Positions 1 to 10,098 of a DNA stretch of 10,389 bases are shown in pieces. Below the pieces are notes generated by a model. The model had not been told where the DNA came from. It ran no database searches and saw only the letters and a program-made list of their open reading frames with translations. This DNA comes from a virus (taxonomy: Duplodnaviria > Heunggongvirae > Uroviricota > Caudoviricetes). The stretch lies in the IMG/VR virus record IMGVR_UViG_2636415610_000011; one strand, 5' to 3'. The position numbers and the translations under genes were made by a program. Every line of letters starts with the position of its first letter. Position 1 is the stretch's first letter.

Positions 1-1260
1 ATGCCAAAACTCACAGATATGCAGATCCGCGCATGGATAAAGGCGGGAGACAGATTTGATGGCAAGGCAGACGGCAACGGCCTTTATATTTGCTACCCCA
101 AAAACTACACAGTCCCGTTCTGGCGATTCCGCTATAAGCTCGCAGGAAAGCAGCGGGCTATGGTTATAGGCTCTTACTCCGAACTGTCACTATCAAAAGC
201 CAGAGAAACAGCAAAAGAGCTGTCAGCCAGAGTTGCTCTTGGCTATGACGTAGCAGCAGAGAAACAGGAACGAAAAGCTGAAGCACTGGCAAAAATGGAG
301 GCTGAGAAAAACGCCATGCGTGTTTCAGATCTGGCCTCCGAATACTTCGAGCGCCAGATACTTCCGAGATGGAAACATCCCGATATCCTTCGCCGGAGAA
401 TTGATAAGGATATTAACCCCTGCATTGGGCATATGAAGGTAGAGGACGTTAAGCCACGCCACATTGACGACATGTTGAAAGGTATCGTTGACCGAGGAGC
501 ACCAACGATAGCAACAGATGTATTACGCTGGACACGCCGTATCTTTGACTATGGGATAAAACGCCACGCTCTGGAGATAAACCCTTGTTCAGCGTTTGAA
601 GTATCTGATGCTGGTGGTAAAGAGGTTTCCCGCGACCGTTGGCTAACTCGCGATGAGCTTATCAGGCTATTCGAGGCTATGCGCACCGCAAAAGGATTCA
701 GCCGCCAGAACGAACTGACATTTAAGCTATTGCTGGCACTATGCGTTCGTAAGATGGAGTTATGCGCCGCACGATGGGAAGAGTTTGATTTAGATGGTGC
801 GGTATGGCATTTGCCGGAAGAACGCAGCAAAAACGGAGACCCTATTGATATACCTCTACCTTCCCCAGCCGTTGAATGGTTGAGAGAGCTACACACCTTT
901 TCATGTAATAGCGCATGGGTGCTTCCGGCCAGGAAGATGCAAAACAGAATGATCCCACATATTCAGGAAAGCACTTTACCCGTAGCACTGGCTAAGGTTC
1001 GCGCCGAAATGCCGGATGTGCCTAATTTCACGATTCACGACTTCCGACGCACCGCACGTACTCATTTAGCAGCGTTGGGTGTTGATCCTGTTGTGGCGGA
1101 ACGATGCCTCAATCATCGCATTAAGGGCGTAGAGGGGATTTATAACCGCCATCAGTATTTTGATGAGCGTAAAGCAGCACTGGCACAGTGGGCTGATCTG
1201 CTGGTGGCACTGGAAAGCGGAAAAGACTACAACGTAACGCCTCTCAGAAGGGCGAACTAA
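1..1260 (+). CDS. int: Tyrosine site-specific integrase, P4-type (N-terminal arm-binding domain of DUF4102 type plus C-terminal catalytic domain)
   Basis: 419-aa ORF. N-terminus LTDMQIRAWIKAGDRFDGKADGNGLYICYP...WRFRYKLAGKQRAMVIGSYSELSLSKARE matches the arm-binding domain pattern of P4-family integrases. C-terminus carries tyrosine-recombinase catalytic residues (HDFRRTARTHL ... LNHRIKGVEGIYNRHQY). ATG at window position 1, so promoter, attL and any tRNA target lie upstream outside the window. Confidence 0.93.
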   Translation: MPKLTDMQIRAWIKAGDRFDGKADGNGLYICYPKNYTVPFWRFRYKLAGKQRAMVIGSYSELSLSKARETAKELSARVALGYDVAAEKQERKAEALAKMEAEKNAMRVSDLASEYFERQILPRWKHPDILRRRIDKDINPCIGHMKVEDVKPRHIDDMLKGIVDRGAPTIATDVLRWTRRIFDYGIKRHALEINPCSAFEVSDAGGKEVSRDRWLTRDELIRLFEAMRTAKGFSRQNELTFKLLLALCVRKMELCAARWEEFDLDGAVWHLPEERSKNGDPIDIPLPSPAVEWLRELHTFSCNSAWVLPARKMQNRMIPHIQESTLPVALAKVRAEMPDVPNFTIHDFRRTARTHLAALGVDPVVAERCLNHRIKGVEGIYNRHQYFDERKAALAQWADLLVALESGKDYNVTPLRRAN

Positions 1261-1355
1261 CTGAATAGATTGAGCCTAGCTCGACGGGGCGAAAAGCGGG
1301 AAGCCTTACCGCCTGGCTCAATCACAAAATAAGGCGCAGCGTAAAAGGTGACGCA

Positions 1356-2321
1356 ATGAACGACTCTCATGAAACAACTGCGGTGCATAGAAATTTATGG
1401 CAGGAATCAGGTATTCCACCTTTGGACTACTGCACGATAGAGCGAGCATCAAAATTATTAAATTGTGAAATTGATGATATATGGCATTGGAAAGATAGAC
1501 TACATATAGACTTTTATGTCTATGCTGACTTTCTTGATTTCATTGAAGCTGATGCCGCCATCCACTTCAAAAAAGATGCTGATTTTATAACTGATTTATT
1601 ACTTATGTACCCAGAAGAAGTAAGGTTTACATTTCCTTTTCTTATTACCAGCGCAAGCAACGAAGTTTATATCCCAGCATCTGAAAGCGGTGCTTATGAG
1701 CTATTTTATGCACATAAACCACTGACAGTTGAAGACAGAGACAATAAAAATGTTTTTGAACAAATTGGCAAAAACTCTTTTATTGTAAGAAAATCAATTG
1801 CATGCGGATTGTTGCGTGTACGCGGTAGTACAACACGACATTATCATTCACAAGAATGTGGAGAGCCATATGTGCGACTTGAAGCAACATTTGATTGTGA
1901 TCTATATAAATTCAAAATGCAAAGTTCCCAGATTCACCTGAGTAGCCTGTCAGATAAAAACATTTATATAACAAAGGCTGATTTAGAATATCTTCACGAC
2001 GCAAAGGTTAATGGAAGTTTTGACGCAGCTAAGAGCAAAAAACGATACGAAATGGCGGTAGAACAGGAACTAATACCTGAAATAAAAAATAGCAACCATA
2101 ATGCCGAGAGACATGCTGAAAACAGGGAAAAACTTTTCAAATCAGCAATATATCTTTTGTCAAAGTATCCTGATGAATGCCGTGGCAAAAAGAAAGAAAT
2201 AAGCCCTGAGAAGTGGCGGGATTGCATAGTGGCTCATAAAGACGAAATTCCACCGTTAGCAATCACAAATGAAGATGTGATTTTGAGACACTTACGTGCT
2301 GCCGCCAACGGTAAGGGGTAG
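1356..2321 (+). CDS. Hypothetical protein, lower-GC orphan cargo gene in the int-alpA slot; function unknown
   Basis: 321-aa ORF with RBS AAGGTG (1345-1350) 5 nt before the ATG. GC is visibly lower than the flanking integrase and alpA (by-eye estimate, about 35-40% versus about 50%). Followed by a strong intrinsic terminator, so it is its own transcription unit. No catalytic motif recognised (no Walker A, HNH or obvious HTH). Confidence 0.75.
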   Translation: MNDSHETTAVHRNLWQESGIPPLDYCTIERASKLLNCEIDDIWHWKDRLHIDFYVYADFLDFIEADAAIHFKKDADFITDLLLMYPEEVRFTFPFLITSASNEVYIPASESGAYELFYAHKPLTVEDRDNKNVFEQIGKNSFIVRKSIACGLLRVRGSTTRHYHSQECGEPYVRLEATFDCDLYKFKMQSSQIHLSSLSDKNIYITKADLEYLHDAKVNGSFDAAKSKKRYEMAVEQELIPEIKNSNHNAERHAENREKLFKSAIYLLSKYPDECRGKKKEISPEKWRDCIVAHKDEIPPLAITNEDVILRHLRAAANGKG

Positions 2322-2336
2322 AGTAGCTAACTATTC

Positions 2337-2367
2337 AGGCACAGTATCATTACTGTGCCTTTTTATT
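2337..2367 (+). terminator. Rho-independent terminator after the orphan gene
   Basis: Perfect 9-bp stem AGGCACAGT (2337-2345) / ACTGTGCCT (2352-2360), 6-nt loop ATCATT, then T-tract TTTTATT (2361-2367); starts 16 nt after the stop codon. Confidence 0.7.
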
Positions 2368-2391
2368 GTTCATATATGTACAGATACTTCC

Positions 2392-2432
2392 TCCCGTAAC
2401 GAAGCAACAACTATCGCTAAGAGGTTACGGGA
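2392..2432. promoter_or_regulatory. Inverted repeat overlapping the alpA ribosome-binding site (putative operator or RBS-sequestering structure)
   Basis: TCCCGTAAC (2392-2400) and GTTACGGGA (2424-2432) are perfect reverse complements separated by 23 nt. The alpA RBS AAGAGG (2419-2424) sits at the loop-stem junction and the ATG is at 2436. Confidence 0.35.
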
Positions 2433-2435
2433 AGC

Positions 2436-2639
2436 ATGAACACCGACACTATTCCTACAAAAGGCTATATCAGACGCTTCCGCCTGGCTGAATTGCTGGG
2501 CGTTAGTGTATCCACCATCGACCGTAAAGTAAGAAACGGTTCACTACCACGTCCGGTAAAGCTGGGAGAAAAAATAACTGCGTTTGATGCGGTTGAGATT
2601 CACAACTGGCTGGCAGAACGCCGCGGGAAGGTGGCCTGA
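2436..2639 (+). CDS. alpA: AlpA/Vis-family small HTH transcriptional regulator / excisionase-like protein
   Basis: 67-aa ORF; IRRFRLAELLGVSVSTIDRKVRNGSLPRPVKLGEKITAFDAVEIHNWL is the characteristic AlpA (prophage CP4-57 regulator) / P4 Vis-like MerR-type HTH. Position downstream of a P4-type integrase is typical. Stop overlaps the next start (TGATG). Confidence 0.85.
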   Translation: MNTDTIPTKGYIRRFRLAELLGVSVSTIDRKVRNGSLPRPVKLGEKITAFDAVEIHNWLAERRGKVA

Positions 2640-3070
2640 TGGAAAAGAAAAACCGCCCATTACAGGCGGCTAATTCAGATATTCGCGTATCTGATGTTAC
2701 GCCCCTTACAAAATCCCTTCAAGAACCAAAGCGCACACCGAAAAAGCATCGTGCCAGAGTCTATATGCTGCGTACTGGTATAGAGGGATGGACAGAAAAT
2801 GACATTCTTCGCTACTGCCGTCTGTCTTCTGGTCGTAACTATGCAACAGAGTTAGAACGCCAGCTTGGAATCACTCTGGAGCGTATCGACGAAAAGAATC
2901 CTGATGGTATCGGAACACACCTTCGCTACCGTTTCTCCTGCCGTGGTGATGTTCTGAAAGTGATCACTCATGTTAACCATCTTGCGAACATAAATGATCA
3001 CAACGGACTTTCTCAGCAGGAAATTGCCGACATTCTGAAACTCTACCCGAACGCGTTTAACGCCGCCTAA
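2639..3070 (+). CDS. Hypothetical protein (143 aa), translationally coupled to alpA
   Basis: ATG 2639 overlaps the alpA stop; RBS GGAAGGTGG upstream. Basic N-terminus (KRTPKKHRAR). No family recognised. Confidence 0.7.
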   Translation: MEKKNRPLQAANSDIRVSDVTPLTKSLQEPKRTPKKHRARVYMLRTGIEGWTENDILRYCRLSSGRNYATELERQLGITLERIDEKNPDGIGTHLRYRFSCRGDVLKVITHVNHLANINDHNGLSQQEIADILKLYPNAFNAA

Positions 3071-3082
3071 CGGAGACTGAAA

Positions 3083-3916
3083 ATGAACATCGAAAAAAGC
3101 AGATTAATTTCTGAGGCCGCCCCTCATCTGAACGCCTCTCTGGGCACAATTAACGGTAATGAATTTGCCGCAATTGTCCCGGTTATTCCTGGTCATATCG
3201 GTGGGCGTGAAACCAATATTGTTAGCGCAAAAGCGTTACACAAAGCGTTGGGCGTGGGAAAAGACTTCTCTACATGGATCACTGATCGCATCTCTGAATA
3301 TGACTTCACCATTGGGCACGATTACTCAGTCCATAAAACAATTTCCCCAAATTTGGGGAAAAGCCCGAATGGCACGGCTTACAGCAAGATTAAGCACTCT
3401 GGCAGACCCGGCAAAGACTATCTGTTAAGTGTCGGAATGGCGAAAGAACTGGCAATGATCGAACGCAATGATCAGGGGCGCGCTATCCGCCGTTATTTCA
3501 TCCAGTGCGAGGAAGAATTACAGCGTAGCGTGCCTGAAATCGCCGCCCGCTATCGTCGCCAGCTAAAAGCCCGTATCAGTGCCGCAAACAACTTTAAGCC
3601 AATGTGCGATGCGCTGAATATGGCCCGTGCCGAGATGGGGAAAACGACGCAGCAACACCACTACACAAACGAGAGCAATATGATTTCTCGTATCGTTCTT
3701 GGTGGGCTAACTGCTAAGCAGTGGGCGCGGATAAATGGCTATTCTGGCGAACCTCGCGACCATATGAACGCAGAACAGCTTGAGCACCTCTCATATCTCG
3801 AAAGCACCAATATCACGTTAATTGATATGGGCATGGAATATGAGCAGCGCAAAGGAGAACTCACCCGCCTGTCGCAACGCTGGCTCGCTAAGCGTCTGGA
3901 GGCGGTCCATGTTTAA
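3083..3916 (+). CDS. Phage antirepressor-like protein (AntA/Rha/Bro-N-type N-terminal domain)
   Basis: 277-aa ORF with RBS GGAG (3072-3075). N-terminal region NIVSAKALHKALGVGKDFSTWITDRISEYDF...GRPGKDYLLSVGMAKELAMIERNDQGRAIRRYFIQCEEEL matches the conserved AntA/Rha-type antirepressor DNA-binding domain. C-terminal half not recognised. Confidence 0.8.
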   Translation: MNIEKSRLISEAAPHLNASLGTINGNEFAAIVPVIPGHIGGRETNIVSAKALHKALGVGKDFSTWITDRISEYDFTIGHDYSVHKTISPNLGKSPNGTAYSKIKHSGRPGKDYLLSVGMAKELAMIERNDQGRAIRRYFIQCEEELQRSVPEIAARYRRQLKARISAANNFKPMCDALNMARAEMGKTTQQHHYTNESNMISRIVLGGLTAKQWARINGYSGEPRDHMNAEQLEHLSYLESTNITLIDMGMEYEQRKGELTRLSQRWLAKRLEAVHV

Positions 3917-4091
3917 GCCGACAGGAACACCACAACCTCAAAAACGCTACAAAGATGCCCACGGAGCACTCGTTACTGTCGAAAGCGTGTCTCACAACCG
4001 AGTGACGTTTTATCGCGACGGGTATCAATCGCCATGCGTACAACCGCTGGCACGTTTCATGAAGGAGTTCGCGGAGGTTAACAAATGCTAA
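3909..4091 (+). CDS. Small hypothetical protein (60 aa), possibly DUF4222-like
   Basis: RBS GGAGG (3898-3902) 6 nt before ATG 3909; start overlaps the upstream stop by 8 nt (translational coupling). The ORF track's longer 3822 start lies inside the upstream gene and is rejected. Pattern YKDAHGALVTV...RVTFYRDGYQSPCVQPLARFMKEF resembles small DUF4222-type prophage proteins, from memory only. Confidence 0.6.
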   Translation: MFKPTGTPQPQKRYKDAHGALVTVESVSHNRVTFYRDGYQSPCVQPLARFMKEFAEVNKC

Positions 4092-5152
4092 CCGCCCAGA
4101 AGAAGACATTTTCACTGGCTGGTATGTCGCCAAAATCCAGCAATATGACAGCAAAGTCAGGCATTAATACAGCAGATACAAGCAAAGTTTATCATTTGCT
4201 GGTGGTAGGAGCGGATGCCTTAACTATGTCAGAAATTACGGTCGATGGTGTTAGCGTTGAGAAGGTCAGCGGCTGCGCCAGAGAATTTCTGGTCGTAGAT
4301 GGCTTTCTCTGCTCGCGTAGTGACTCCACAAAAACCTTCGTCCACGCGCGTGACGTTAACGAAATGAGCGCGATGTACTGTGCTTCTGGTTCTTCCAATA
4401 GTGAGTTTTCGGAGTCCATAAAAAAGAGCTTGCCGTTATGCGGCAACACGGTTTATGGTTATAAGGCACCTCATAAAACGGGTGCCGGGATTGGCGTCCT
4501 GGTAAATCGAATGGCGACATATGACGCGCCGAGCGTCTTTTTTTATGTCGTAGGTCTGACTCACCCATTTTTTGGGCGTTGGTGTATAATCCAGCGCCTT
4601 TGTCAATCAATGGTGGCTCAGGCAGGGGCTTCTTCGGAAGCGCCGGTATCCATTCGAGCCGGTTACGCCAACCCTGTCTGGGCTACCACCAGCGAAATTG
4701 GCGTTTCCGGTGGTAGCGTTACATGCTATCGAATGGAGGCTGCCACATGCTGGCTACTACCCCTACCCAAAAACCGCAATTTATCTGGATTATCGCCGCA
4801 GTTCGCCGCGATTGCCCGACAATTACCGCCAAAATTCATCATATTGCTGCCGAGTCTGAACGCGATGCTCGCCGTTCTCTGGTGCGCGATCACGTCTGCT
4901 TTTTTGCTGGTCGTATCCGCATGGAGGTGGCACATGATTAAAACCTACGATGTGCATATGGATCCCCTCGAACGCACAAGCCAGATCATCACACTGACAG
5001 AAGTGATTAACGACATTCTGGTGAGCAACTCTCCCTCACGAGACGAAAGACTGAAGGCGTTACTCGCGATATTGGATCTCGCCGTTCGTGACGTTCATTT
5101 CCTGCTGGAAGGTGGCGAAATGCCAGTAAAAACGGGGGAAACCAATGAATAA
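4085..5152 (+). CDS. Stop-free 355-codon frame; probably a composite: a roughly 222-aa gene (4085 to about 4753) that has lost its stop and reads through in frame into the 4934-5152 gene
   Basis: RBS GGAGG (4071-4075) and ATG 4085 coupled to the upstream stop (ATGCTAA). Codon usage read by eye looks coding from 4085 to about 4745 (G-rich first positions, few rare codons). The same frame over 4745-4933 is full of rare codons (CTA x3, TTA x3, GGA, CGA, ATA, AGG) while the -1 frame there has none. An automated gene caller would probably report the whole ORF as one hypothetical protein. Confidence 0.4.
4747..4941 (+). CDS. Small hypothetical protein (64 aa) in the -1 frame relative to the 4085 ORF
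   Basis: RBS GGAGG (4735-4739) 7 nt before ATG 4747. All codons are common enteric codons (CTG, CGC, CGT, ATC, CCG, GCC; no rare codons). Stop TAA (4939-4941) overlaps the next ATG (4934) in the same 8-nt coupling arrangement used elsewhere in this operon. Alternative start ATG 4723. Confidence 0.5.
   Translation: MLATTPTQKPQFIWIIAAVRRDCPTITAKIHHIAAESERDARRSLVRDHVCFFAGRIRMEVAHD
4934..5152 (+). CDS. Small hypothetical protein (72 aa)
   Basis: RBS GGAGGTGG (4923-4930) just upstream of ATG 4934; coupled to the upstream stop and to the downstream start (ATG 5145 / TAA 5150-5152). In frame with, and contained in, the 4085-5152 ORF. Confidence 0.45.
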   Translation: MIKTYDVHMDPLERTSQIITLTEVINDILVSNSPSRDERLKALLAILDLAVRDVHFLLEGGEMPVKTGETNE

Positions 5153-5339
5153 CTCAATTAATACCCCTCGCCTTACGTCCGCACTTCAATTAATCGAGCA
5201 AGCAGCGGCTGTCCTGGTTGCTGTCAGTCTTTCGGCTGAAGAAATGGACGCTACTGATGTCGTGGATGCGATTAAAGCGTGCTCATCTTTGGTTAACGAT
5301 GCCCGTGCAGAGCTGGTAATTCTTGGGGGTGAAAAATGA
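5145..5339 (+). CDS. Small hypothetical protein (64 aa)
   Basis: ATG 5145 overlaps the upstream stop by 8 nt; G-rich RBS GGGGGA (5134-5139). Ala/Leu-rich, helical-looking sequence. Confidence 0.65.
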   Translation: MNNSINTPRLTSALQLIEQAAAVLVAVSLSAEEMDATDVVDAIKACSSLVNDARAELVILGGEK

Positions 5340-5599
5340 ATATCAACTTAATTTATCGTCATCCGTGTGGGCTGGAAATTGAATCATTGCTGAGCCGTGA
5401 AGAGCCATATCCAGACACATTCACTCTTGCAGATCGCACGACTGAACGGCTTACCAGAGCGCGCACAGGTCTGGTTCATGTGATGAATGAGATTCTTCCA
5501 TCGGTGGGAGGGGAACAGGCGACAGTAATCACTAGCTGGCTACAAAAAGTTACCTCTCTGATAGATATCAGTTTAATCGATGCGGAGAGTGCGAAATGA
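5336..5599 (+). CDS. Small hypothetical protein (87 aa)
   Basis: ATGA start/stop overlap with the upstream gene (5336-5339); RBS GGGGGTG (5323-5329). Confidence 0.7.
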   Translation: MNINLIYRHPCGLEIESLLSREEPYPDTFTLADRTTERLTRARTGLVHVMNEILPSVGGEQATVITSWLQKVTSLIDISLIDAESAK

Positions 5600-5817
5600 C
5601 CAACATCCAGCTCATTGAAGCGCAATGTCGCATCGAACAGGTTCAGACTGTTTTAGGGTTCTGGCTTGAAGGGGCCAGCCCCAGCAACAGAGACAAGTTA
5701 ATGATTGGCGCGGTTATGTCACTGCTCAATGGCGTACCAGAAGCTATTCAGGAAGCAGACGAATTGTTGGGCAAATATGAGTTACAGAATCATTCAGGCG
5801 AGGCGAAACATGAATAA
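5596..5817 (+). CDS. Small hypothetical protein (73 aa)
   Basis: ATGA overlap with the upstream gene (5596-5599); RBS GGAGAG (5584-5589). Confidence 0.7.
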   Translation: MTNIQLIEAQCRIEQVQTVLGFWLEGASPSNRDKLMIGAVMSLLNGVPEAIQEADELLGKYELQNHSGEAKHE

Positions 5818-6412
5818 TTTCTTAACTTTCCATGCAGAAGCAACGCCTGACGGCGTAAACATCATGCACCGCAGCAACGATGGCATGACAGAACGCGTTG
5901 AGACCGTCTCATATATTGATGCCGTAAATCGTCTGGATGCCGGGGATTATGACGATAAACCAGATGAAGGCATGTCAATACATCTCGCTATAGCCGATGG
6001 CGGCAACCAGGGATATTTCGATTACACATCACAGCATAACGTCATTATGTGGAGATGGCTGATCGCAACAGTATTCATGCTGGAAATGAGAGAGGAAAAC
6101 GGCACTGTCAGCATCATTGATGATACTGGCAATCCTTCCGAAGTGGCTGTTTATTCCAACGGCATCGTCGCCATGCCGCTGTATCCAGTAGCAGAGCGCC
6201 TCGCTATGGCAAACAACATTGAGGGCGCGATGATAGAACGTTTTGGCATCGAGTCTGGCACAGAACGCGCCATCATTTTCTACAGAGCCATGATGGATGT
6301 GGAACAAGGAGCACTGACTCCATTTGGTCGTGAAACGCTTGCTGAACTTCACAACAGCTTTATAGCTGAACTGAATGAAAACGGCATGCCAGCGGAACCA
6401 GTGACGCACTGA
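5810..6412 (+). CDS. Hypothetical acidic protein (200 aa)
   Basis: ATG 5810 overlaps the upstream stop (ATGAATAA, stop at 5815-5817); RBS AGGCGAGG upstream. The ORF-track start at 5705 lies deep inside the previous gene in another frame and is rejected. Confidence 0.75.
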   Translation: MNNFLTFHAEATPDGVNIMHRSNDGMTERVETVSYIDAVNRLDAGDYDDKPDEGMSIHLAIADGGNQGYFDYTSQHNVIMWRWLIATVFMLEMREENGTVSIIDDTGNPSEVAVYSNGIVAMPLYPVAERLAMANNIEGAMIERFGIESGTERAIIFYRAMMDVEQGALTPFGRETLAELHNSFIAELNENGMPAEPVTH

Positions 6413-6422
6413 GGATGGAGCC

Positions 6423-6764
6423 ATGATTACTAAAAATTTCCGACTGAATGCGCTGGCAAATAAGTATGCGTCGGCACTGTATAACCACATTACCTCCACC
6501 AGCGGCGGGGACTATTTCATGGTTGATGCGGACGGCGAGGCCGTACGTGTGGAAATCGTCAATGGAGTAAAAGACGTTCGCAGCCTGATCGATAGCTACA
6601 CACTGGCAGCCATGAAAGTGTTCTACCCGCAGTGGGAAACCGTGGGGATCGAGCTTCTTGAGCGTTGCGTCACTAAGGACGGATTGACTGACGTCGGGCG
6701 TGAGATATGGCAAAGCATGGTTAATGACATGGGCGCAACTGTAGCGGGAGGTTCTCATGCGTGA
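6423..6764 (+). CDS. Hypothetical protein (113 aa)
   Basis: RBS GGATGGAG (6414-6421) immediately before ATG 6423, which lies 10 nt after the upstream stop. Confidence 0.75.
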   Translation: MITKNFRLNALANKYASALYNHITSTSGGDYFMVDADGEAVRVEIVNGVKDVRSLIDSYTLAAMKVFYPQWETVGIELLERCVTKDGLTDVGREIWQSMVNDMGATVAGGSHA

Positions 6765-7128
6765 AAATGCAGAAATGGCGCTTAGCTCCGCAATCGGAGA
6801 GCAGGTGGCAAAGATTGCTGGTGCTGTGTGGATTCATAACCTTCATTCTACTGGTGAAGAGAAAATGGCAATTCAGACGCCAGAGGGACGCACCATTACT
6901 ACATCTCTGAAGCCGTCAGATGTTTGTGATCTGATTTGCGCATTCATGTACCCAGCAATGAGGACTGTCCACAGCGATAAGTGGAAACTTGCGACAACCG
7001 CTGAATTTGATATGTGGCTAAACAATGATGGCATGCTGACTGATTACGGAATAACCAAGTGGCAGATGCTGGTTAGCCATATCGCAAACGCTATAGACCA
7101 CGTGGGGTACGGTGATGCGAAACATTGA
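6757..7128 (+). CDS. Hypothetical protein (123 aa), immediately upstream of and coupled to the primase-helicase
   Basis: ATG 6757 overlaps the upstream stop by 8 nt; its own stop (7126-7128) overlaps the primase start. Confidence 0.75.
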   Translation: MRENAEMALSSAIGEQVAKIAGAVWIHNLHSTGEEKMAIQTPEGRTITTSLKPSDVCDLICAFMYPAMRTVHSDKWKLATTAEFDMWLNNDGMLTDYGITKWQMLVSHIANAIDHVGYGDAKH

Positions 7129-9871
7129 TCTTATCCGTCAGGTTATCAGTGCGTCTGAAAACAACTGGCCTCATGTGCTGGGCTGCCTGAACATAAATGT
7201 CCCTGACTCTCCGCGCCGTCATGCTCCCTGCCCTGCATGTGGGGGCAAAGATCGATTCCGGTTCGATGACAACGGGCGCGGTAGCTTCATCTGTAATCAG
7301 TGCGGCGCTGGTGATGGGCTGGATTTAATTAAACGCGTAAATAACTGCGACACAACAGAGGCGGCGCTTCTTGCCGCTGATGTTCTGGGTATTGATTACC
7401 GGACAACGGAAACACCAGAAGCCACCAGCCAGAAACGGGAACAACTGGAAACCGAGCGCCAGCGACGCGAACAGGAGCGCCTGAAAAGGGCAGAGAAGGA
7501 CGAACAACAAAGACGGGATACGTTTTCCCGTCAGTTTGATGACATGCGCAGAAAGGCTGTAAACGGCAAATCTGATTATCTGGTTGCGAAAGGGGTAGGT
7601 GATTTTACATTCCCCGTGTTGCCCGATGGATCTCTGTTGCTGGCGCTGGTGGATAAATCCGGCGCAGTCACAGCAGCACAGACTATTACCTCACATGGTG
7701 AAAAAAGACTCCTGAGAGGTTCAGCAAAGCGGGGGGCATATCACGCCATAAACGCGCCAGAAACAACACAGAGCATCTTAATTACAGAAGGGCTGGCAAC
7801 GGCATTATCTGCCCATTTAATTCGTCCAGAGGCGCTGACAGTGGCGGCGATTGATGCCGGGAACCTGTTATATGTCGCCCAGGTACTGCGGGATAAATTT
7901 CCTTCAGCACAAATCATCATTGCTGCGGATAACGACCACAGCGAAGGAAGACAAAACACGGGGAGAATAGCAGCAGAAAAAGCAGCTTTATCTGTTTCTG
8001 GATGGGTGGCATTACCCCCGACAGATCACAAAGCAGACTGGAATGATTACCACCAAAAACACGGCATTAAATGCGCCACAGAAGCGTTCAATAAGTCAAT
8101 GTACCAACCACAGGGTAATGGCGTGAAACAGGAGCCACAGACCATTGAGGGAAGCGATTTTAAGGTTATGGATACCGACCCACTGAAACCAAGAATAGAA
8201 AGCCGCGAGGATGGTATTTATTGGGTATCTCCGAGAGCTGACAGCCAGAGTGGAGAAATCATCAATAACGAAAGCTGGTTATGTTCTCCGTTAAGCGTTA
8301 TCGGTACTGGCAGAGACGATAAAGACCAGTATCTCATTCTTCGCTGGCTGTCGTTTGGTTCTGAAACGCCGACAACCGCTGCCATTCCACTGGCTGATAT
8401 TGGTGAACGTGAAGGATGGCGCACACTTAAAGCTGGTGGGGTAAATGTCACGACCAAAAGCAGCCTCAGAGCAATACTGGCAGACTGGCTACAACGCAGT
8501 GGCTCTCGTGAATTGTGGCGTGTTGCTCATGCCACTGGCTGGCAATGCGGAGCGTACATCATGCCTGATGGGGAAATCATCGGAACACCTGAAAATCCTG
8601 TGCTGTTCAGCGGGAGAAGCTCAGCCGCAGCCGGATATACCGTCTCAGGGAGCGCGAAAAGCTGGCGTGATAACGTGGCGCGTCTGGCCTTTGGTAACTA
8701 TTCAATGATGACCGGGATCGGCGCAGCACTGGCAGCGCCATTGATTGGGCTGGTGGGCGCTGACGGGTTCGGCATTCATTTCTATGAGCAGTCGAGCGCA
8801 GGTAAGACCACCACGGCAAACGTGGCGAGCAGCTTATACGGCAACCCTGATTTACTGCGGCTGACGTGGTACGGAACCGCGCTGGGGCTGGCAAATGAGG
8901 CCGCCGCCCACAATGACGGACTAATGCCGCTTGATGAAGTTGGTCAGGGCGCTGATCCTGTCAGCGTTTCACAGTCTGCCTATGCGTTATTTAACGGTGT
9001 AGGGAAACTGCAAGGCGCTAAAGATGGTGGAAACCGGGATCTAAAACGCTGGCGTACAGTGGCAATCAGCACCGGAGAAATGGATTTAGAAACATTTATC
9101 GCTACTTCCGGGCGAAAAACCAAAGCCGGGCAACTGGTGCGACTGCTGAATATTCCGTTGAGTAAAGCAGTACGCTTTCACGATTACCAGAACGGAAAAC
9201 AGCACGCAGACGCACTGAAAGACGCTTACCAGCATCACCACGGCGCGTCCGGGCGTGAGTGGATTAAATGGCTGGCAGACCACCAGCAACAGGCTATTAA
9301 AACCGTTCGTGACTGCGAAAGCAGATGGAGAAGCCTGATCCCATCCGATTATGGTGAGCAGGTTCACCGTGTAGCCGCGCGATTTGCCATTCTGGAGGCC
9401 GCATTGTTGTTAGGCGAGGTTGTAACAGGCTGGGATGCTCAGACATGCCGTGATGCGATACAGCACAGCTATAACGCATGGTTGCGCGAGTTCGGCACAG
9501 GTAACAAAGAGCATCAGCAGATTATTGAACAAACGGAGGCATTTCTTAATGCCTATGGGCTTAGCCGTTTTGCACCATTTCCATACAGCCCGGCAGATTT
9601 GCCCATCAAAGATTTAGCCGGATACCGTCAGCGTGGAGAACATGACGAAAGCCCAATGATTTTCTACACATTCCCGGCCACATTTGAAAAGGAGATCGCA
9701 TGTGGTTTCAACGCAAAACAGTTTGCTGAAGTGTTGAAAAAAGCCGGGATGCTAACCCCACCAAACAGCGGTCGTGGATACCAAAGAAAATCACCACGTA
9801 TTCAGGGACGACAAATAAACGTTTATGTACTCAATTACCAGCCAGGAGATTATAACTCATCTGAAGAATGA
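7115..9871 (+). CDS. Primase-helicase of the phage P4 alpha type (N-terminal Zn-ribbon, Toprim primase core, C-terminal P-loop NTPase/helicase-like domain)
   Basis: About 918 aa. Zn-ribbon CPACGGKDRFRFDD...GSFICNQCG; Toprim signatures ITEGLATAL (conserved Glu) and IIIAADNDHSEG (DxD); Walker-A-like FYEQSSAGKTTTA in the C-terminal domain. ATG 7115 preferred; GTG 7112 (ORF-track start) is an alternative. Confidence 0.93.
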   Translation: MRNIDLIRQVISASENNWPHVLGCLNINVPDSPRRHAPCPACGGKDRFRFDDNGRGSFICNQCGAGDGLDLIKRVNNCDTTEAALLAADVLGIDYRTTETPEATSQKREQLETERQRREQERLKRAEKDEQQRRDTFSRQFDDMRRKAVNGKSDYLVAKGVGDFTFPVLPDGSLLLALVDKSGAVTAAQTITSHGEKRLLRGSAKRGAYHAINAPETTQSILITEGLATALSAHLIRPEALTVAAIDAGNLLYVAQVLRDKFPSAQIIIAADNDHSEGRQNTGRIAAEKAALSVSGWVALPPTDHKADWNDYHQKHGIKCATEAFNKSMYQPQGNGVKQEPQTIEGSDFKVMDTDPLKPRIESREDGIYWVSPRADSQSGEIINNESWLCSPLSVIGTGRDDKDQYLILRWLSFGSETPTTAAIPLADIGEREGWRTLKAGGVNVTTKSSLRAILADWLQRSGSRELWRVAHATGWQCGAYIMPDGEIIGTPENPVLFSGRSSAAAGYTVSGSAKSWRDNVARLAFGNYSMMTGIGAALAAPLIGLVGADGFGIHFYEQSSAGKTTTANVASSLYGNPDLLRLTWYGTALGLANEAAAHNDGLMPLDEVGQGADPVSVSQSAYALFNGVGKLQGAKDGGNRDLKRWRTVAISTGEMDLETFIATSGRKTKAGQLVRLLNIPLSKAVRFHDYQNGKQHADALKDAYQHHHGASGREWIKWLADHQQQAIKTVRDCESRWRSLIPSDYGEQVHRVAARFAILEAALLLGEVVTGWDAQTCRDAIQHSYNAWLREFGTGNKEHQQIIEQTEAFLNAYGLSRFAPFPYSPADLPIKDLAGYRQRGEHDESPMIFYTFPATFEKEIACGFNAKQFAEVLKKAGMLTPPNSGRGYQRKSPRIQGRQINVYVLNYQPGDYNSSEE

Positions 9872-9896
9872 GCTTCTTCATGTGCGTAGAAAAGGT

Positions 9897-10007
9897 GTTG
9901 GTTCAGTTGGTTCAGTTGGTTCAATTTGTAAAGAGTATTGTTTTATAAGGATTTTATTCTTTTTATTGAACCAACACTGAACCAACAACACGGTATTTTG
10001 AACCAAC
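9897..10007. repeat. Iteron array: putative replication origin of the island
   Basis: Three perfect tandem GTTGGTTCA (9897-9905, 9906-9914, 9915-9923), then a 43-bp strongly AT-rich tract (9924-9966), then three inverted copies TGAACCAAC (9967-9975, 9978-9986, 9999-10007) spaced 11 and 21 bp (helical phasing). Lies 26 bp downstream of the primase-helicase stop. Confidence 0.6.
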
Positions 10008-10098
10008 ACAATGTGACTGAATTGATGCGCACAACACCTGGCTGGCATCAGAGAGTGTTTTACGAGACTTTCGTAAAATCCTGTGTACAAGGGCGTGA

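Follow-up and report, generated by a model that had tools for sequence, protein, structure and literature searches.

Why does a stretch of satellite DNA hold a frame of 355 codons that is free of stops and that, read piece by piece, resembles several genes in a row? The question is raised by positions 4085-5152 of IMG/VR record IMGVR_UViG_2636415610_000011, a Caudoviricetes sequence of 10,389 nucleotides. We call this whole stretch the window; it is a satellite-type island, and all numbering is by its positions. A sequence-only reading had taken the open reading frame (ORF) for three ordinary genes fused through the loss of a stop codon at 4751-4753. Comparison with other genomes leads to a different answer. 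The ORF is probably the counterpart of the eta gene of satellite P4, laid across the RNAs of an immunity module and displaced by one base relative to the cell division inhibitor gene icd. We put the probability of this explanation, which takes the window as an island like the phage-inducible chromosomal island (PICI) EcCIMP1 carrying a P4-type RNA immunity module, at roughly 0.7 as a whole. What the locus adds is that a known regulatory architecture, that of P4 eta, kil and CI, is found in a widespread frame variant not previously described.

No stop codon has been lost at the junction

The frame exists exactly as the sequence-only reading gave it, with an ATG start and 355 amino acids, and the motifs behind the fusion idea (ATGCTAA at 4085, ATGCTGG at 4747, TGG at 4751-4753) are all present. 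The way to ask if a stop has been lost, one that a single G-to-A change would bring back, is to align homologues and look for TGA or TAG at 4751-4753. Instead, TGG is invariant there in 10/10 full-length Escherichia coli homologues (86-100% identical), and each of them can be read from the homologous ATG through 355, 343 or 342 codons of open long frame; two of the ten have lost a net 36 and 39 nt, in both cases keeping the frame. The same 355-codon ORF with the same junction is intact in the E. coli PICI EcCIMP1, for which experiments have demonstrated excision and transduction by the P22-like phage Kapi1 (PMC11773190). The long frame is open too in Leclercia and in 72 IMG/VR loci that have the same junction. 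Full-length products occur in E. coli, Klebsiella, Raoultella, Pluralibacter and Salmonella, with protein-database clusters of hundreds to 1,393 member sequences. The long frame has no stop at any point, and 4735-4750 contains no slippery motif. Relatives with the commoner arrangement described below have no stop at the junction either; their upstream frame runs in frame into icd, as eta does into kil in P4. Sequencing error can be dismissed, since complete genomes and EcCIMP1 carry an identical ORF, and private mutation or read-through of a stop fares no better against this many open homologues. The long frame is real and conserved, neither a mutation nor an artefact.

In RefSeq genomes the same intact DNA has nevertheless been annotated in two styles by the Prokaryotic Genome Annotation Pipeline (PGAP), either as one "ash family protein" of 355 aa or as a pair, an "ash pseudogene" and an "Icd-like protein". 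The two styles come out when L002, L007 and L291 (EcCIMP1) are compared with L001, L003-L006 and L010-L012. Two of the ten E. coli homologues, L002 and L007, bear the pseudogene label despite an equally intact long frame. In the window lineage PGAP calls no icd wherever it calls the long ORF, and in the compared loci it never annotates the third gene (gene 3, 4934-5152) alone. A frame that is conserved across the immunity RNAs and shifted against icd explains this recurrent double annotation.

An RNA immunity module lies inside the frame

The features in and around the long ORF that bear on the question are as follows, all on the plus strand.

4073..4091: ORF start region, with GGAGG at 4073-4077, a 7-nt spacer and ATGCTAA
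4085..5152: long ORF, ATG start, 355 aa; PGAP "ash family protein" WP_001437061.1; probable analogue of P4 eta
4430..4459: promoter-like TTGCCG-N18-TATGGT (TTGCCG 4430-4435, TATGGT 4454-4459), ending 6 nt before the isrK start
4466..4543: isrK/seqA-like RNA (Rfam RF01394, 67.1 bits)
4507-4514: isrK target TCGAATGG, complementary to the C4 loop
4523-4537, then a T run: hairpin of the intrinsic terminator of the isrK element, from a terminator scan
4606..4693: C4/CI-type antisense immunity RNA (Rfam RF01695, 79.5 bits against a gathering score of 45)
4649-4657: C4 specificity loop TCCATTCGA, which pairs with TCGAATGG and TCGAATGGA
4729-4737 (region 4729..4739): seqC-like target TCGAATGGA, overlapping the icd Shine-Dalgarno sequence (SD) GGAGG 4735-4739
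4740..4746: SD-to-ATG spacer CTGCCAC, 7 nt, the point where the long frame turns +1 relative to icd
4747..4941: icd/kil-like gene for a host cell division inhibitor of 64 aa (NCBIfam NF033153, score 71.7 bits, cut-off 25)
4934..5152: gene 3, 72 aa, in the position of P4 epsilon, with its ATG behind GGAGG 4923-4927

Along the ORF the order is thus a P22-type pac fragment (treated further on), a PLE-like candidate promoter, the isrK/seqA-like RNA with its terminator, the C4/CI RNA, the target on the icd ribosome binding site (RBS), icd/kil in another frame, and gene 3 in the frame of the long ORF. The codon-usage log-likelihood over 4085-4693 is near zero (-0.05 to +0.16), so the part that had been described as looking coding to about 4745 does not score as coding; the 3' half of what was to be the first gene is two structured RNAs, a candidate promoter and a terminator. 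The other two parts of the proposal hold up. The 4747-4941 ORF behind its GGAGG is a real gene, with its highest score in its own frame (+0.37; the long frame gives -0.09), and the region from ATG 4934, in frame with 4085, is coding (+0.28). Gene 3 also shows conservative substitutions in its Klebsiella, Pluralibacter and Leclercia homologues, which is divergence at the protein level. The picture of a composite frame containing icd and gene 3 as separate genes, each with its own RBS, therefore stands; the lost stop falls away, and so does an ordinary protein gene in first place.

The module can be recognized by its pairing. The target in isrK and the target on the icd RBS are both complementary to the C4 loop, and the kil/icd homologue lies directly downstream of the seqC-like target. 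Own loop-target pairing averages 8.8 and 7.8 nt across 62 loci. The C4 helices covary, with compensatory changes in 16/28 consensus pairs among 35 sequences. Near-identical islands differ mostly at 4500-4513, 4646-4660 and 4727-4738, which are the three pairing sites, and these sites change together among immunity types, being CGAATGG/CCATTCG in the window and CTGAAGG/CCTTCAG in L003. Since loop and target heptamers are swapped jointly at three sites, and 30 distinct C4 loops occur across the loci, many immunity types must be in circulation. IsrK has been described as a structural homologue of P4 SeqA (PMC4825925), and the equation of isrK with seqA and of C4 with CI is drawn in two papers. 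Judged on these sequence features, the module is of the P4 (and P1) type of RNA immunity.

Upstream of it is a conserved motif, GGCTTGC...TAT(A/G)GT, which in nearly all of 50+ listed loci ends 6-7 nt ahead of isrK. The TATGGT of the window aligns with the "-10" hexamer annotated in P4 record X02534, which we take to be that of PLE, and hence the window element is a PLE-like candidate promoter; its score is below the threshold of a generic promoter scan. Directly 5' of a perfect hairpin TTGCCGTTATGCGGCAA (4430-4446) there is also an in-phase A-AAA-AAG heptamer at 4420-4426. Read on the minus strand, the hairpin and A run look like a terminator hairpin followed by a T run, and part of the family retains the A run.

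An open frame without a conserved peptide

A tool to ask what is conserved, the frame or the peptide, is a sample of loci picked by Icd alone from 57 species. The isrK and C4 elements are upstream of icd in 57/57 of these, and in 56/57 the whole region between the isrK start and the icd ATG is spanned by a stop-free frame. In a set of 69 unique segments there are 2 stop triplets in the frame of the long ORF (the Ash frame, by its family name), 178 in the +1 frame and 279 in the +2 frame, and both Ash-frame stops belong to L051, whose C4 shows an alignment gap. The bias persists inside the hypervariable C4 loops; the 30 distinct loops contain 1, 8 and 11 stops in the Ash, +1 and +2 frames, the single Ash-frame stop being that of the frameshifted L051. 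The open frame over the immunity RNAs is thus maintained across Enterobacterales, even where it crosses the hypervariable loops. As a separate observation, L006 and L007 have a 38-nt deletion (window 4568-4605) that removes the isrK-C4 spacer including TATAAT 4585-4590, and with a further 1-nt deletion, and in L006 a 3-nt insertion, the frame stays intact.

The peptide behaves differently. Entropy is about equal at the three codon positions over C4 (0.65/0.68/0.64) and isrK (0.65/0.64/0.68), compared with 0.49/0.57/1.10 for icd in its own frame, so the isrK and C4 segments exhibit no third-position excess of the kind expected of an evolving protein. These are the segments on which the family assignment depends. 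Pfam PF10554 (Phage_ASH) matches the ORF product with 105.3 bits against a cut-off of 26, but only over aa 124-232, that is nt 4454-4780, which is the span of the isrK and C4 RNAs with short flanks. The Ash residues that Pfam finds conserved fall on nucleic-acid signals, VYGY on the -10 region, FF on the T run of the terminator, and the rest on RNA helices. Hence PF10554, together with several PHROGs families labelled as transcriptional regulator or repressor, appears to be essentially a conceptual translation of candidate promoter, isrK/seqA, terminator and C4/CI RNA. The family name itself traces to a "putative ash gene" entered in 1984 in P4 record X02534. No relative of the ORF product was found in the Protein Data Bank (PDB), and the AlphaFold model, for which the alignment was shallow, is uninformative (mean predicted local distance difference test score, pLDDT, of 32.5, and <50 for residues 1-303). 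Because stops avoid the frame, codon periodicity is absent and the RNA helices covary, we conclude that the open frame is kept while the amino acid sequence is not conserved as such.

The one-base shift relative to icd

The long ORF shares neither the frame nor the stop of icd, ending at 5152 and not at 4941. Between the start of C4 and the icd ATG there are 141 nt in the window (0 mod 3) compared with 142 or 145 nt (1 mod 3) in the in-frame relatives checked, and the long frame turns +1 at the SD-to-ATG spacer. P4-like in-frame loci have an 8-nt spacer, as in CTGCCATC or CTGCCGCT. The spacer of the window is one base shorter, and because of this the long frame crosses icd at +1. In the 57-species sample the spanning frame is the icd frame at 54/57 loci, as in P4, and the +1 frame in the window lineage and two Leclercia loci. 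Gene 3 and icd share 8 nt where the gene 3 ATG meets the icd stop (ATGATTAA), which puts gene 3 at +1 too; the spanning frame is then the frame of gene 3, and therefore the ORF ends at the gene 3 stop.

The shifted junction is not rare. IMG/VR was scanned with two exact junction patterns, and the many chance 15-mer matches were discarded by requiring an adjacent C4; this left 72 loci with 51 unique icd sequences. In all 72 the long frame continues for 10 to 868 nt beyond icd, into whichever gene comes next. At L076, L137 and about 25 more of the IMG/VR loci the Ash-frame ORF has 500-524 codons, reaching 868 nt past the icd-position ORF and entering a gene of about 290 aa of the Phage_integrase family. 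In most of this group the icd-position ORF is 81 aa long and departs from Icd after "MATTPTQK".

What does the frame encode where it overprints icd? Between the window and Leclercia, icd differs at 10/6/25 sites by icd codon position. Third positions of icd are second positions of the long frame, where most of the differences therefore fall, so the overprinted peptide is not conserved. The sequence-only reading had likewise doubted this stretch as protein.

Alternative explanations

The lost stop and a ribosomal frameshift both concern the junction. Fusion of three ordinary genes at 4751-4753, whether through mutation, sequencing error or regulated read-through, has in its favor that ATGCTGG resembles the ATGCTAA overlap at 4085 and that icd and gene 3 each have an RBS. 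It is now highly improbable. Every homologue examined has TGG and an open frame, relatives of the other arrangement are also stop-free here and run in frame into icd, the segment upstream is occupied by RNA genes, and read-through has no stop codon to act on. A programmed frameshift near the junction, restoring an Eta-Kil fusion, might be entertained because icd is in the -1 frame relative to the ORF and A-AAA-AAG at 4420-4426 is in phase. The junction itself offers no slippery motif, however, and AAAAAAG is conserved also in relatives with the in-frame arrangement. A -1 shift at 4420-4426 would soon terminate, as the icd frame is closed upstream of 4717, and the idea is rejected as hardly credible.

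Two further explanations accept the open frame and differ on its meaning. One is that the ORF is a genuine multidomain "Ash family" protein of the Bro network with a functional amino acid sequence. A 105-bit PF10554 match, further matches to regulator-labelled PHROGs families, a strong RBS and conservation of the ORF across genera are what one would expect of such a protein, and Mageeney et al. handle Phage_ASH as a Bro-network domain. We nevertheless consider it quite unlikely, given the missing third-position excess over the Ash segment, the position of VYGY, FF and other conserved residues on the -10 hexamer, T run and RNA helices, the second-position changes over icd, the lack of a PDB relative and the low pLDDT. 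The other is that openness is a neutral by-product of conserved RNAs that happen to contain no stops, the shifted lineage then being a harmless frameshifted eta. The RNAs are indeed highly conserved, and over icd the +1 frame is naturally open in many cases, namely in 36/58 loci of in-frame arrangement (62%) and in 76% of synonymous resamplings of the window-type Icd. Neutrality fits poorly with the loops, where a single Ash-frame stop, in the frameshifted L051, is to be compared with 8 and 11 in the other frames, and with the indels of L006 and L007, which are multiples of three. Over icd, the frame is open in 7/7 shift-type Icd lineages, which under independence has a joint probability of 0.007, and L132 has CTT ATT where its in-frame relatives have TTA ATC, which would give TAA in the +1 frame. 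A neutral origin for the whole is therefore unlikely, while for the icd segment itself these counts only weakly support selection for openness.

Some points weigh against the eta-like explanation that we prefer. Openness selected over icd has to be set against the 36 of 58 and the 76% just given. The promoter match is weak by generic criteria, falling under the scan threshold. The AlphaFold model (mean pLDDT 32.5) was uninformative and built on a shallow alignment, and the N-terminal 125 codons or the fusion product may have a function. Lastly, the antitermination role is carried over from P4.

Comparison with P4 and a proposed mechanism

In P4, according to the part of PMC10111431 that reports on Forti et al. 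(1999), eta is coupled to an alpA homologue, starts upstream of PLE, and contains the constitutive promoter and CI. Its translation is there said to prevent Rho-dependent termination, letting late transcripts escape immunity. In the P4 sequence we find a 217-codon open frame that spans the isrK-like and C4 elements and ends with kil, and the 1984 "putative ash gene" is part of this frame. P4 Eta aligns with aa 116-220 of the window ORF, the similarity ending at "EAA", just before the icd start, and the Ash segments are 40% identical. The two loci share the order of internal promoter (a candidate in the window), seqA/isrK-like element and terminator, C4/CI RNA, target on the kil/icd RBS, and small overlapping downstream gene. 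In each, a long ORF has its start 5' of that promoter position, is apparently coupled to the gene before it and runs across the RNA genes. They differ in three respects. P4 eta is in the kil frame and nested with it at a shared stop, whereas the window frame is at +1, overprints icd and ends with gene 3. The N-terminal part of the window ORF is different and contains the P22 pac fragment. And four genes lie between alpA and the ORF in the window, where in the account cited the P4 ORF is coupled to the alpA homologue directly; the four are the three ORFs of the PGAP annotation at the near-identical L001 plus an ORF at 3159-3428. The long ORF is accordingly cistron number 5 in a tight array downstream of alpA, and its ATG at 4085 overlaps the stop codon of a DUF4222 gene (by Pfam), which suggests translational coupling to that gene.

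By analogy with P4, we infer antitermination by translation. A short transcript would start at the putative promoter within the ORF and consist of the isrK/seqA-like element and terminator, and then the C4/CI RNA. Through pairing with its targets in isrK and on the icd RBS, the C4 loop would prevent translation of icd and favor termination. The eta-like frame, starting upstream of the internal promoter and presumably coupled to the alpA-operon genes, is stop-free over both RNAs, and for this reason ribosomes on long transcripts induced by a helper could cross the immunity region. If P4 is a guide, their transit would keep transcription going into the replication genes. The selected trait would then be the open frame and not the amino acid sequence, and over the window-type Icd the +1 frame is naturally stop-poor. 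Such a reading would extend the P4 eta mechanism, still by analogy, to PICI-like satellites. The shifted variant offers a natural test of whether ribosome transit or the protein is what matters.

The immI operon of P1 and P7 (c4 antisense RNA, icd, ant) is similar in having a C4 RNA and an Icd-family protein whose RBS the RNA targets, and the Rfam c4-a1b1 target family matches the isrK region in relatives of the window. It is unlike the window in that no ant follows icd here, an antA/AntB gene lying upstream instead. The Salmonella Gifsy-1 IsrK small RNA shares the Rfam isrK match, but there IsrK activates translation of orf45-anrP, while the window copy is upstream of C4 and icd in a P4-type module.

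A P22 pac fragment in the N-terminal part

The different N-terminal part of the ORF includes two nested features.

4233..4339, minus strand: fragment of a P22-type small-terminase gene (gene 3 of P22), 107 bp, antisense to the long ORF and 87.8% identical to P22 positions 4-110
4318-4339, minus-strand sense: GAAGGTTTTTGTGGAGTCACTA, homologue of the 22-bp P22 pac site, annotated at P22 4-25

The minus strand of this region encodes gp3-like residues, and the edge of the fragment coincides exactly with the outer boundary of the annotated 22-bp pac site. GAAGGTTTTTGTGGAGTCACTA matches P22 pac at 16/22 bases and the published pseudo-pac consensus at 16/17 positions. The pac homologue is present in 10/10 homologues and in EcCIMP1, whose packaging mechanism is stated as unknown. 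Among islands, 11/21 variable sites of the fragment are gp3 third-codon positions, which suggests exchange with helper alleles. From its sequence, the fragment is a possible packaging signal for P22-type helpers. As a source of the fragment, the Kapi1 small terminase was considered and dropped, as Kapi1 has a different terS with no similarity to the window. A further phage packaging fragment was considered for the variable central part of the corresponding ORF in relative L008, but that part has no phage match. A second site close to the pseudo-pac consensus, AACGTTTATTTGTCGTC at 9807-9823 on the minus strand, has one mismatch and is probably fortuitous, since chance alone would give about 0.66 such sites per window.

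A more ambitious proposal, tentative and rather doubtful as it stands, joins the two peculiarities of this lineage: the one-base shift would be adaptive and not neutral, and the captured P22 gene-3 fragment would be the packaging signal of the island for P22-type helpers. The shift might uncouple antitermination by translation from the making of toxic Kil/Icd. Ribosomes on the induced transcript would pass icd out of frame while occluding its RBS, and would be delivered into gene 3, or elsewhere into the tyrosine-recombinase-like gene, as an N-terminally extended product.

The island around the frame

The window is 99.9-100% identical to an island of E. coli cq9 that adjoins yicC. PGAP annotates on it an integrase, a helix-turn-helix/AlpA regulator, an antA/AntB protein, DUF4222, the 355-aa "ash family protein" and a TOPRIM/DUF927 primase. 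It can be counted as a PICI by its integrase, alpA and primase module, and because it is nearly identical to the validated PICI EcCIMP1. Identity to EcCIMP1 is 97.7% over window 2629-10098, a span that takes in the shared ORF, junction and pac-like fragment; EcCIMP1 differs in its integrase and attachment site, at tRNA-Thr near proA as against yicC for the near-identical cq9 island. As the integrase end of the window (1-2628) is unrelated to EcCIMP1, the immunity/replication module is common to islands with different integration modules. The EcCIMP1 paper (PMC11773190) annotates the "Ash family protein" alone and does not discuss the RNAs. In the window, another RNA, int-alpA (Rfam RF02996, 60.6 bits), is at 1269-1335, between the integrase gene and the next ORF.

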